This document shows positions 33,485-39,572 of a stretch of 64,000 bases of DNA, piece after piece. The DNA comes from Escherichia coli (GTDB lineage: Bacteria > Pseudomonadota > Gammaproteobacteria > Enterobacterales > Enterobacteriaceae). The notes under the pieces are model-generated. The model saw only the letters and a program-made list of their open reading frames with translations. It was not told the origin of the DNA and did not search any database. The stretch is taken from NCBI RefSeq assembly GCF_016026235.1, contig NZ_CP065613.1; one strand, given 5' to 3'. Each line of letters starts with the position of its first letter. Positions within the stretch are counted from its first letter, which is position 1. Made by a program: the position numbers and the translations under genes.

Positions 33485-34375
33485 TTAATACTCGAGAATG
33501 CCGTGCGCGACGGGCAAATAGCGCAGAGAGAAATAGAGAGTGTCTTTACCGCAAGAGGAACGTTTCGCTAACAGCGAGGCAATTTCTGCGTCCGGTTTCG
33601 GTTTCGCTGTAAAGGTTTTGCCTTTGCCGGCGACAAACAGTTCATAAACAATGCCGCTTGCTGGGGCGGAACTCTGGCAATCGGCGCTGGCCTGTAGATA
33701 ACGTTCACGCTGTTCAGCGGTAAGTTTATCCACGCCGCTGCCATCCTGTACCCAGACATTAACGCCGGTTGCTTTAACGTGTTCCAGCAGTTGGCGATAG
33801 CCATCTGGCGACATGTTTCCGGCGAAAAAACTACTGATATAAACCGGTTTTGCTGAAACATCGCTAATCAGCCGCTGCTCGTTGTTTAACCATGTTAGCA
33901 AAGGCTGACGGGCGGCTTCGCTGCGCCAGTTCAGGTCGTCAATTTCCGCGCTGATGTACCAGCCATCCGGCGTTATGCCAGGCGCGGCGCTCCATAATCT
34001 GGCTTGCTGGAGATCGGCAGCCAGCAGGCGATTAAGATAGCTTTCCAGCGCTGCAGACGACTGTTTCTGGTGCATAAAAAATTCCGGATCGGCGTTCAGC
34101 CCGACAATCAGCTTCAGACCAGCCTGTTGCGCAGCTGCGGCCCGCTTAAACAATAACGTGCGCTGTTCTGGCTGGGTAAATGCATCGCCGTAACGGGTCC
34201 ATTGCAAAACCAGGGTATCGAAGCCTTGCAAACGTAACTGACTCATCAGCCCCTGCCACTGGGTATCGGTAACCTGACTATCTCGGTTTTGTGGTTGCCA
34301 GATAATACCTTTCATCGCAAAGGAAAAAGGGCTGACCAAAAGCAGTGTCAGCAATACGAAAATGAACTTACGCAT
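33485..34375 (-). CDS. ybcH: Periplasmic protein encoded with nfrBA (polysaccharide-processing candidate)
   Basis: 296-aa ORF with N-terminal signal peptide; its start codon abuts the nfrA stop codon. Confidence 0.8.
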   Translation of the reverse strand: MRKFIFVLLTLLLVSPFSFAMKGIIWQPQNRDSQVTDTQWQGLMSQLRLQGFDTLVLQWTRYGDAFTQPEQRTLLFKRAAAAQQAGLKLIVGLNADPEFFMHQKQSSAALESYLNRLLAADLQQARLWSAAPGITPDGWYISAEIDDLNWRSEAARQPLLTWLNNEQRLISDVSAKPVYISSFFAGNMSPDGYRQLLEHVKATGVNVWVQDGSGVDKLTAEQRERYLQASADCQSSAPASGIVYELFVAGKGKTFTAKPKPDAEIASLLAKRSSCGKDTLYFSLRYLPVAHGILEY

Positions 34376-37348: not shown

Positions 37349-39572
37349 TTTCGGACTCCAGTTGCGTAACCTGTTCTGTGCTTAAACCTGCTTTGAGTAA
37401 TAGTGATTGCATCGAAACTTGTAATTCGCGTTGAATTGTCAGGACGCGATCCAACGTTTCCTGGCTGATAACGCCTTCGGTGACCAAAAACTTGCCGAGC
37501 GGCAGAGAACTGCGTTCATGGCGCAATAACAACACGTTAATTGCTGAACGATTAATATGACCGAGCGTGGTCAGTATTTCGGCGAACAGGAACTGATGCG
37601 GCACATATTGCCGCCAGATTTCACCGGCCTGCTGTTCCGTGAGCCACTGATGCTGAACCGCATTGTACAACATTGCCCGCGGATCGTGACCGCGTCGGCG
37701 TGCATACCAGTGACGTAACCCCGTGACAATTTGTCCCAGCAGAACAATGACGTAACGCACTTTGCGTCCGACTTTACGCGTCAGGGCCGCCAGCGAAACT
37801 GGGTCAATACCATCTTCACTGCCGACAATTAACTCATCATTTTCCAGACGCAGCGGCAGTACCGCATAATGCAGCGCCACGGAGGCCGGCATTTCGGCAA
37901 TCAGCGAGGAAGGGATCTGCCAGGCATCGATGGATTCCCACGCCACGCCGTTTTGCTCTGCCAGCGCCTGTGCCAGTTGCTCGGCGCTAATCAGCCCCTG
38001 CATCAGCATTGAACCGCCCAGGCGTAGACCTTCGACGCGATTACGCAGTGCTGTATCGAGTTGTTCTTCAGTGATGACCTGATTTTCCAGCAGAATTTGA
38101 CCTAACGGGCGCAACGAGCGGGTATCGCCAGTGACGCTGGGGAAGTCATGCGTTGTTTTATCCCACGCCACGCGACGTGGATCGCCGTGTTGAAGTACCT
38201 GTTTTAACGCGCGCCAGTTGGCCATGAAGTTAATCAGGTTGCCCCAGAAAAGACGCAGGACGGAAAGCAGCCCCTGCGTCAGGCCGTAGTAGCCAGTAAC
38301 GAAAATCACCCGCTGCACGATGCGGTTAACCATCAAACCAAAGTTTAGCCACAGCAGGGTCATTAACCATGCGCTGCCGCTGAAAATAGAAAGGAAATGC
38401 CAGGCATCGGGCCACAAACTTTCATACGCCAGCAACAGCAAAAGCTGGATCATCACCAGCATCGCGAGGAAGCTGACAAAGTTACTGATTGCCCCTTTGC
38501 GGTCGCGCCAGAGAAAGTAGTTCAGCGTCAGGCTGGAGGTCCATTTATGGGTTTTAAAGCCCTGGAAAACAATGCCGATGATCCAGCGGGATTTTTGTCG
38601 AACCGCAGTCGAAAAGGTATCGGGGAAATATTCGCGCACGCAGATCATGTTTGACGTCCGTGCGTGCTGTAAAAATTTACGCTGCTCGCGTTCTTTGGCT
38701 TCGTCCACCACCGGAAAACGGACAAAAATTTCCGTCATACCTTTTTCTTTCAGGCGGAAGCCAATGTCGTAATCTTCAGTAAGACTCTGCACGTCGAAAG
38801 CAATACCGTCACCGTCAGCTAACAGTGCGGTCACGGCGCGGCGGCTGAAACAGGTGCCGACGCCTGCGCTGGGCACTTGTCCGGCGAGGGCTTCACGCAC
38901 CGGAACATCTTTGCCATGCAGCTCTGAAAACTCATCAATGTAAGTCATGCTAGTGAAGTGCGTCCATTCGCGTTCAAACGGATACACCGGGATCTGAATC
39001 AGATCTTTACGCTCGACCAGATAGTTGAACAGACGCAATTCCATCGGTGAAATCACATCTTCGGCGTCATGCAGAATAAAACCAGCAAAAGCGAAATTGG
39101 CGCTACGCTCAAACTGGGTGATGGCGTCCAGCACGTTGTTCAGACAGTCGGCTTTGCTGGTGGGGCCAGGACGCGCGCAGACTACCTTATGCACATTCGG
39201 GAAGCGAGCGCACACTTCGTCAACATCACGCTGAGTGTCCGGGTCGTTGGGGTAGGTGCCAACAAAGATATGATAGTTTTCGTAGTCGAGCGTGGTCGCC
39301 GCCAGCTCGGCCATATTGCCGATGACGCCCGTTTCATTCCACGCCGGAACCATAATCGCTAACGGTTTTTCATCTGGTTTATACAGTTCGCGGTAACTCA
39401 TTCGCGGGTAGCGGCGATAAACACTCAACTTGCGTTTAATGCGGCGTACCCAGTAGACGACATCAATAAAAAAATCGTCCAGCCCGCTGATGAACATGAT
39501 GACCGCTAACGTTATCGCGATTACTTTTAAGCCATAGAGCCAGGTAGCAAAAACATCAAGAAGCCAGTCCAC
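37335..39572 (-). CDS. nfrB: Inner-membrane family-2 glycosyltransferase with C-terminal c-di-GMP-binding MshEN domain
   Basis: 745-aa ORF with GT2 core and two C-terminal RLGxx…G(I/L)…Q motifs. Confidence 0.9.
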   Translation of the reverse strand: MDWLLDVFATWLYGLKVIAITLAVIMFISGLDDFFIDVVYWVRRIKRKLSVYRRYPRMSYRELYKPDEKPLAIMVPAWNETGVIGNMAELAATTLDYENYHIFVGTYPNDPDTQRDVDEVCARFPNVHKVVCARPGPTSKADCLNNVLDAITQFERSANFAFAGFILHDAEDVISPMELRLFNYLVERKDLIQIPVYPFEREWTHFTSMTYIDEFSELHGKDVPVREALAGQVPSAGVGTCFSRRAVTALLADGDGIAFDVQSLTEDYDIGFRLKEKGMTEIFVRFPVVDEAKEREQRKFLQHARTSNMICVREYFPDTFSTAVRQKSRWIIGIVFQGFKTHKWTSSLTLNYFLWRDRKGAISNFVSFLAMLVMIQLLLLLAYESLWPDAWHFLSIFSGSAWLMTLLWLNFGLMVNRIVQRVIFVTGYYGLTQGLLSVLRLFWGNLINFMANWRALKQVLQHGDPRRVAWDKTTHDFPSVTGDTRSLRPLGQILLENQVITEEQLDTALRNRVEGLRLGGSMLMQGLISAEQLAQALAEQNGVAWESIDAWQIPSSLIAEMPASVALHYAVLPLRLENDELIVGSEDGIDPVSLAALTRKVGRKVRYVIVLLGQIVTGLRHWYARRRGHDPRAMLYNAVQHQWLTEQQAGEIWRQYVPHQFLFAEILTTLGHINRSAINVLLLRHERSSLPLGKFLVTEGVISQETLDRVLTIQRELQVSMQSLLLKAGLSTEQVTQLESENEGE

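Follow-up and report, generated by a model that had tools for sequence, protein, structure and literature searches.

The nfrB-nfrA-ybcH locus of Escherichia coli raises the question of how three minus-strand genes, translated in close succession, make and export a polysaccharide under the control of cyclic di-GMP (c-di-GMP), and of what the third product, YbcH, contributes to this task. The locus analyzed here lies at positions 33485 to 39572 of a 64,000-nucleotide stretch of DNA (RefSeq assembly GCF_016026235.1, contig NZ_CP065613.1), which as a whole is referred to as the window. It is the intact, already characterised nfrB-nfrA-ybcH operon of E. coli, a synthase-dependent exopolysaccharide secretion system. 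An earlier note, made from the letters of the sequence, had described it as such a system and as the one used by phage N4; this interpretation is correct and already published, and it is supported by the domains of the three proteins, by their identity to those of K-12 and by two mBio papers from 2021 (PMC8669469, PMC8669472). While Nfr biology is thus in the literature, and the window adds another intact allele to it, the present analysis contributes a hypothesis on the function of YbcH, and with it of the DUF4434 family, together with a question about the number of strands in the NfrA barrel.

The open reading frame (ORF) list places all three genes exactly where the earlier note had put them, namely nfrB at 37335..39572 (745 aa, GTG start), which codes for an inner-membrane processive family-2 glycosyltransferase (GT2) with a C-terminal c-di-GMP receptor module; nfrA at 34376..37348 (990 aa), for an outer-membrane export protein composed of tetratricopeptide repeats (TPR) and a beta-barrel, the N4 receptor; and ybcH at 33485..34375 (296 aa), for a periplasmic DUF4434 (beta/alpha)8-barrel protein that we propose to be a glycoside hydrolase. 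The claimed overlap of 14 nt between nfrB and nfrA is seen in the junction sequence at 37335..37348 (ATGAAGGAGAATAA, minus strand); there the minus strand reads ...GAAAATGAAGGAGAATAACC, with the nfrA ATG 14 nt ahead of the end of the nfrB TAA. At the second junction, TGGTAAATGCGT, the ybcH ATG follows the nfrA TAA with no nucleotide in between, again as had been claimed. The same 14-nt overlap is given for K-12 (PMC8669469, Fig. 1B legend). Each of the two downstream starts has a Shine-Dalgarno-like GGAG ahead of it, at a distance of 7 nt for nfrA and of 11 nt for ybcH. In distant homologous operons with the same gene order, the two junctions were 4-nt/4-nt, 4-nt/9-nt-gap and 11-nt/1-nt; tight coupling is therefore a conserved arrangement, not one peculiar to E. 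coli. Short overlaps are common in bacterial operons generally, and translational coupling was discarded as an unusual feature of this locus, since it is real and conserved, yet ordinary for operons of multi-subunit machines.

With regard to distribution, a megablast search with window positions 33000-40000 as query against 5426 complete E. coli genomes matched the locus in 5412 of them, with at least 80% in one piece in 5047 and a best identity of 99.2%; around 7% of the genomes were without the locus in one piece. The features under this match are envY, ybcH (DUF4434), nfrA, nfrB and cusS, and in RefSeq the same three coding sequences, equally long, are annotated for both E. coli O145 and K-12. 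Compared with the Nfr locus of K-12 MG1655 (b0569-b0567), the genes, their order and lengths, the 14-nt overlap and the flanking envY and cusS genes are all alike, and the DNA of the operon is 98.9% identical. At the protein level, identities were 99.6% for NfrB (substitutions R612L, N731S and A736T), 99.2% for NfrA (8 substitutions) and 99.0% for YbcH (A166E, P236S and V242I), which makes 14 amino-acid substitutions in all, none of them inside the validated motifs. In addition, all three proteins exceeded the cut-offs of their NCBIfam models: 1330 bits vs 1170 for the NfrB equivalog NF008411, 1889 vs 1223 for NF007302 (NfrA) and 521 vs 344 for the YbcH equivalog. The K-12 RefSeq record now names the nfr genes exopolysaccharide secretion components. 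A reading of the locus as a defence system was dropped, as the PADLOC defence-system models matched none of NfrB, NfrA and YbcH.

Both parts that had been claimed for NfrB, a glycosyltransferase and an MshEN domain for c-di-GMP reception, were recovered by domain searches. The GT2 catalytic domain spans aa 70-382 (38427..39365, minus strand), covered by Pfam matches PF13641 (aa 70-332, 6e-35) and PF13632 (aa 165-382, 2e-40), and it contains the DxD, TED and QxxRW motifs of an inner-membrane processive GT2 synthase, in the form of D169 within HDAED (168-172), TED (265-267) and QKSRW (326-330). A Kyte-Doolittle scan located hydrophobic segments at aa 365-451 (38220..38480, minus strand), between the catalytic and the regulatory parts, and a further N-terminal membrane segment at aa 18-36. 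The MshEN domain follows at aa 488-628 (37689..38111, minus strand; NCBIfam NF053729 at aa 489-540, Pfam MshEN at aa 542-628), with E-values of 8e-13 for PF05157 and 8e-20 for the NCBIfam c-di-GMP motif; a homologue that lacks MshEN aligns to NfrB aa 4-487 at 46% identity and ends exactly there. A regular-expression search identified tandem 24-residue c-di-GMP-binding motifs at aa 488-512 and 516-540, with L490, G491 and L537 present, and matches to sequences in the PDB comprised the c-di-GMP N-domains of PilF, PilB and MshE (2e-16 to 6e-5). Domain and motifs together are those of a post-translational c-di-GMP receptor, the binding itself being taken from the literature, and the residues validated by mutagenesis, D169, D267, W330, L490, G491 and L537, are all present. 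Besides the tandem pair, a third, isolated MshEN-type motif was matched at aa 690-714 (LPLGKFLVTEGVISQETLDRVLTIQ; 37431..37505, minus strand), and the NCBIfam motif model likewise finds 3 stretches in NfrB. This candidate third c-di-GMP-binding copy lies some 150 residues beyond the tandem pair and is not discussed in PMC8669469 or PMC8669472.

NfrA begins with a signal peptide, termed classical in PMC8669469, which by the -3/-1 rule applied to the translation would comprise aa 1-27 (...SALA/DN; 37268..37348, minus strand). It is followed by a periplasmic TPR region of approximately aa 34-712 (35213..37249, minus strand), with Pfam matches TPR_19, TPR_14, TPR_12 and TPR_15 at aa 34-704 and PDB TPR matches at aa 598-712. 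The C-terminal part matches NfrA_C (3e-67) and was modelled as an outer-membrane beta-barrel at aa 741-990 (34379..35128, minus strand). This model, built for residues 701-990 from a shallow alignment of 13 sequences, has moderate confidence (predicted local distance difference test, pLDDT, of 78.5) and in it two helices precede 12 long strands (741-989). NfrA ends in an aromatic residue, W990, and such a terminal Trp is typical of outer-membrane proteins. The model was best matched by 12-stranded barrels, with PgaA at rank 21 (10.2) and BcsC at rank 24 (9.7). In line with it, an amphipathic-beta scan of the NfrA alignment, which does not depend on AlphaFold, gave at least one peak per strand in all 12 strands and none between strands, as well as three marginal peaks in the helical region just upstream of the barrel. 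A search of the PDB with the profile of the C-terminal alignment was uninformative on the barrel, being dominated by TPR matches from homologues with a longer N-terminus. The full-length AlphaFold model of Sellner et al. has a 16-stranded barrel (PMC8669472), a discrepancy with the 12 strands of our model of moderate confidence. The predicted beta-barrel holds whatever the strand count, and NfrA has the composition of an outer-membrane barrel porin with periplasmic TPR. The resemblance to PgaA that had been noted, however, is one of architecture: against the PgaA family (TIGR03939) NfrA scores 21.1 bits, with a cut-off of 366.65 and a match confined to the TPR region, and it is a PgaA analogue that falls outside this family.

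YbcH matches DUF4434 (PF14488) over its full length (E = 7e-69, residues 21-291 against positions 1-282 of the 283 of the model). In an alignment of 74 homologues, down to 24% identity and all of them matching DUF4434, residues Q58, W59, G92, L93, E144, E245 and F247 were invariant, and Q27, P28, D32, W40, G138, Y140, D147, S181, Q210, G212, G214, F255, F282, S283, L284 and Y286 nearly so. The AlphaFold2 model (pLDDT 95.9, predicted template modelling score 0.92) shows a (beta/alpha)8 barrel whose strands comprise residues 22-26, 54-57, 88-92, 138-146, 178-183, 206-210, 241-245 and 278-282. Nearly all conserved residues are found where these strands end C-terminally or directly past that point, on the catalytic face of a TIM barrel. 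Glu144 (codon 33944..33946, minus strand) lies at the end of strand 4 and Glu245 (33641..33643, minus strand) at the end of strand 7, as candidate acid/base and nucleophile, respectively. Glutamates on strands 4 and 7 are the defining layout of the '4/7' (clan GH-A) glycosidases, and the model thus combines the fold of this clan with its two conserved Glu positions. Its structural neighbours were almost all active glycosidases. High among them, though not at the top, were a GH164 beta-mannosidase (score 17.1) and a GH5 mannanase (16.9), together with beta-amylase and the PgaB/BpsB glycoside-hydrolase domain (16.6); many GH5, GH42, GH53, GH113 and GH18 enzymes ranked below these. At the sequence level, a single-sequence search of the PDB with YbcH returned noise only (E ~1), and a profile search reached PDB 4h41 (E 4e-4), aligning the strand-4 motif GWY...EI with Glu144 on GWYISGEI.

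As to its location, YbcH had been called secreted, which should read exported to the periplasm; the N-terminal signal peptide itself is present, predicted from homologue N-termini to cover aa 1-20 (...SFA/MKGIIWQPQ; 34316..34375, minus strand). Most of 40 homologue N-termini have an Ala-X-Ala-type site (SFA/M, SQA/M, ANA/M, ASA/I, AQA/F and others) right before a conserved mature start of the form xGIFWQPQ, and one homologue carries a lipobox in its place; the prevalence of such sites argues for a cleaved, soluble periplasmic protein.

The gene order GT2(-MshEN), TPR plus NfrA_C, DUF4434 was kept, with overlapping or near-abutting junctions, in the neighbourhoods of distant YbcH homologues, whose identity to YbcH is 44% in a Rhodanobacter genome and 30% and 26% in two metagenome contigs. 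From this conserved synteny, YbcH appears to be a core part of the Nfr machine. The order persists with a synthase of 487 aa that is devoid of MshEN and shares 46% identity with NfrB 4-487, and in two of the three operon types a WecB-type epimerase is encoded immediately ahead of these genes. In metagenome contigs L004 (3832-8873) and L005 (2810-7851), a WecB-like epimerase, a 487-aa GT2 without MshEN, an NfrA-like protein and a DUF4434 protein are encoded; judged by their gene content, these operons would represent a c-di-GMP-independent version of the Nfr system.

The working of the system is known from experiments in K-12 and is here transferred to proteins at least 99% identical to those tested. 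In K-12, NfrB 414-745 binds c-di-GMP through MshEN with a dissociation constant of 1.0 uM, and the exchanges D169A, D267A and W330A abolish N4 plating; DgcJ, the local source of c-di-GMP, is specifically required and physically interacts with NfrB in pull-down assays (PMC8669469). The same authors found that wecB is required and wecC is not, opposite mutation effects which point to UDP-N-acetylmannosamine (UDP-ManNAc) as the substrate, that expression of nfr is FliA-dependent, post-exponential and temperature-modulated, and that motility is blocked at high c-di-GMP via Nfr (PMC8669469). Sellner et al. (2021) reached the same model independently, named the product NGR and added control by PdeL, and other phages use the same NGR glycan (PMC8669472). 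The statement in the earlier note that the native polymer and its physiological role are poorly characterised is accurate, both remaining open (PMC8669469, PMC8669472 and a 2023 review, PMC10211494); the system itself is better characterised, through the 2021 papers, than the note implies. Because of the high identity to the tested proteins, we infer that N4 sensitivity and c-di-GMP binding by NfrB also apply to the allele in the window.

According to the mechanism carried over from K-12, NfrB sits in the inner membrane, where c-di-GMP made locally by the diguanylate cyclase DgcJ binds the tandem motifs of its C-terminal MshEN domain and thereby switches on the N-terminal processive GT2, which polymerises a sugar that WecB supplies as UDP-ManNAc. 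The chain then crosses the periplasm, spanned by the TPR region of NfrA, and exits through the C-terminal beta-barrel of this protein as the outer-membrane pore. Outside, the polymer serves as the attachment sugar for phage N4 and, at high c-di-GMP, hinders flagellar motility. YbcH, exported to the periplasm by its cleavable signal peptide, would be a (beta/alpha)8 '4/7' glycoside hydrolase in which Glu144 acts as the acid/base and Glu245 as the nucleophile. It would trim or release the nascent polymer, a task performed in other synthase-dependent systems by BcsZ, PslG, PelA, AlgL and the C-terminal domain of PgaB. That the Nfr system is present as an intact operon and works in this manner we regard as very probable, and the hydrolase role of YbcH as probable.

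Several observations weigh against this account in one part or another. In the literature found, NGR has been neither isolated nor chemically defined, and its ManNAc content rests solely on the genetics of wecB and wecC. In an alternative reading NfrB makes no free secreted homopolymer; it would glycosylate a specific acceptor in the envelope, such as NfrA or a lipid, or produce a short or mixed ManNAc-containing glycan, and the structure so decorated would be the phage receptor; it would agree with this that NfrB has fewer hydrophobic segments than BcsA and that the NfrA barrel, if 12-stranded, is narrower than known polysaccharide porins. We judge this alternative improbable. The view held before 2021, in which NfrA and NfrB are purely protein receptors for N4, with no part in adsorption for the glycosyltransferase and c-di-GMP domains, can draw on historical naming, on the NCBIfam term 'phage receptor' still in use for NfrA and on a reported contact between the N4 sheath protein and NfrA (cited in PMC10211494). 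It is refuted by published point mutants in the glycosyltransferase active site and in MshEN, which abolish or reduce N4 plating at unchanged NfrB levels (PMC8669469), and N4 also needs dgcJ and wecB (PMC8669469; PMC8669472), so that we give it practically no credence. On the regulatory side, nfr is reported to be FliA-dependent, as a class 3 flagellar gene. When the sigma-28 (FliA) consensus TAAAGTTT-N11-GCCGATAA was sought in the 241 bases ahead of nfrB, the best match scored 11/16, a value reached by 127 of 500 shuffles. FliA control of nfr may be indirect, or exerted through a non-canonical promoter, since no better-than-chance sigma-28 consensus is found upstream of nfrB (window 39573-39800).

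To these points are added those that concern YbcH. The Asn that precedes the acid/base Glu in GH-A enzymes is absent, this position being occupied by Ala143 in a variable column, and YbcH is therefore not to be filed as a canonical member of the clan. A Pfam scan of the 74 homologues gave nothing significant beyond DUF4434, the lone further hit being a GH5 match of E = 0.056 in one homologue, and literature searches on DUF4434, PF14488, BT_0435 and YbcH returned no report of enzymatic activity. Moreover, the authors of PMC8669469 hold YbcH to be an uncleaved, membrane-anchored scaffold. A periplasmic subunit without catalysis, serving as a scaffold or binding glycan, perhaps held in the inner membrane by its uncleaved signal sequence and bridging NfrB and the TPR region of NfrA, as proposed by Junkermeier and Hengge (PMC8669469; PMC10211494), would indeed suit a protein without the Asn-Glu motif and without a sequence-level tie to an active hydrolase family, whose deletion phenotypes are only mild; TIM-barrel pseudo-enzymes do exist. 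The scaffold is, nevertheless, difficult to reconcile with two glutamates that are invariant down to 24% identity exactly at the strand-4 and strand-7 positions, with the remaining conserved residues lying on the catalytic face as expected of an enzyme, with structural neighbours that are nearly all active glycosidases and with the Ala-X-Ala site that most homologues carry just before the conserved mature N-terminus, and we consider it rather doubtful, albeit worth keeping in mind. Accessory hydrolases of other exopolysaccharide systems likewise give mild phenotypes. The partial motility and N4 phenotypes of ybcH mutants (PMC8669469; bioRxiv 10.1101/2025.09.29.679331) would fit a hydrolase with an accessory, non-essential role, and on the strength of the model and the conserved residues we infer that YbcH is the periplasmic glycoside hydrolase of the Nfr system. 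A more far-reaching proposal, in which YbcH acts on a ManNAc-based polymer through Glu144 and Glu245 as the representative of a new family and, together with a 12-stranded NfrA barrel narrower than the porins of Pga, Bcs, Pel and Alg with their 16 to 18 strands, sets Nfr apart as a structurally distinct branch of synthase-dependent secretion and not as a copy of the PgaA type, is put forward tentatively, with somewhat less than an even chance of being right.

Regarding the flanks of the operon, the cusS-nfrB intergenic region (39573..39721, minus strand; 149 bp), 147 of whose 149 bases are identical to K-12, holds the operon promoter and an AAGG ribosome-binding site. Scans of the intergenic regions found nothing above chance for the sigma-70 consensus and no terminator by consensus. 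At the other end, 9 nt past the ybcH stop, a 13-bp stem-loop (33447..33475, minus strand) with a predicted RNA fold of -19.1 kcal/mol (z = -3.1) is likely to be the operon terminator or an RNA-stabilising hairpin; the tract downstream of it shows only slight enrichment in U, and no terminator was flagged there by the consensus scan. Further on, at window positions 32419-32540, the tRNA-Arg(UCU) gene argU is followed 45 bp later by the stop codon of envY. In comparison with K-12, the cryptic prophage DLP12 (ompT, appY, emrE) between these two genes is absent, so that argU leads straight to envY; the sequence past argU equals the attR flank of K-12, and the junction looks like an unoccupied DLP12 attachment site.

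The closest match found, E. coli FDAARGOS_943 (NZ_CP065615.1, locus 6247-9731), is 100% identical to the window over argU-envY-ybcH. In this strain an IS1 truncates the 5' end of nfrA, and nfrB, cusS, cusR and cusC are deleted; the N4/NGR receptor pathway has thus been lost naturally here. Elsewhere in the window, at 54016-56212, two hok/sok copies of the hokE type (about 390 bp each, 95-96% identical) flank an IS4-like ISEc60, the inverted repeats of which lie at 54404-54423 and 55680-55699. Rfam detects sok in both copies (54084-54238; 55890-56045), and both also encode a Hok protein of 50 aa whose reading frame seems intact; most of the arrangement is covered by just one complete E. coli genome, that of FDAARGOS_943. 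Rfam gathering-level matches to enterobacterial small RNAs were also obtained for STnc480 (87 bits, 10933-10999) and ES036/CssrF (40.5 bits, 56990-57031).

The Nfr operon provides the receptor pathway on which N4-like phages and other coliphages that depend on NGR rely, and it is a textbook example of c-di-GMP signalling at the local level. If YbcH were indeed an NGR-specific hydrolase, it would provide a ready reagent with which to digest and characterise a glycan that has resisted chemical definition, and a function would be assigned to a Pfam domain of unknown function that has a crystal structure but no known activity. The discrepancy in the strand number of NfrA, in turn, bears on modelling how polymer or phage uses this protein.

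The MshEN domain of NfrB shares the tandem 24-residue RLGxx(L/V/I)(L/V/I)xxG(L/V/I)(L/V/I)xxxxLxxxLxxQ motifs with MshE, PilF and PilB, but whereas its role there is to control ATPases of secretion or of pili, in NfrB it is fused to a glycosyltransferase and, unlike theirs, trailed by around 200 more residues with the third motif copy. YbcH is 15% identical to PDB 4H41 (BT_0435 of Bacteroides thetaiotaomicron), a DUF4434 protein deposited as a 'putative alpha-L-fucosidase'; this is a structural-genomics entry for which no published activity was found, and no link of it to an Nfr-type operon is known. In contrast to the Pga system (PgaABCD, poly-beta-1,6-GlcNAc), which senses c-di-GMP at the PgaC-PgaD interface, Nfr does so by the synthase-fused MshEN; it has no deacetylase domain, uses UDP-ManNAc instead of UDP-GlcNAc (UDP-N-acetylglucosamine), and its NfrA fails the PgaA model (21 bits vs 367) and is modelled with a barrel of 12 strands vs 16. 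The likeness to Bcs (BcsA/BcsB/BcsC/BcsZ) extends to a processive GT2 with DxD, TED and QxxRW, a TPR-barrel protein in BcsC, a periplasmic hydrolase in BcsZ and allosteric activation by c-di-GMP from a locally acting cyclase, DgcC for Bcs and DgcJ for Nfr (PMC10211494). For the periplasmic enzyme that cleaves or modifies the polymer in systems of the Bcs, Pga, Alg and Pel type, the candidate in Nfr would be YbcH, with its hydrolase-like fold and its pair of glutamates.

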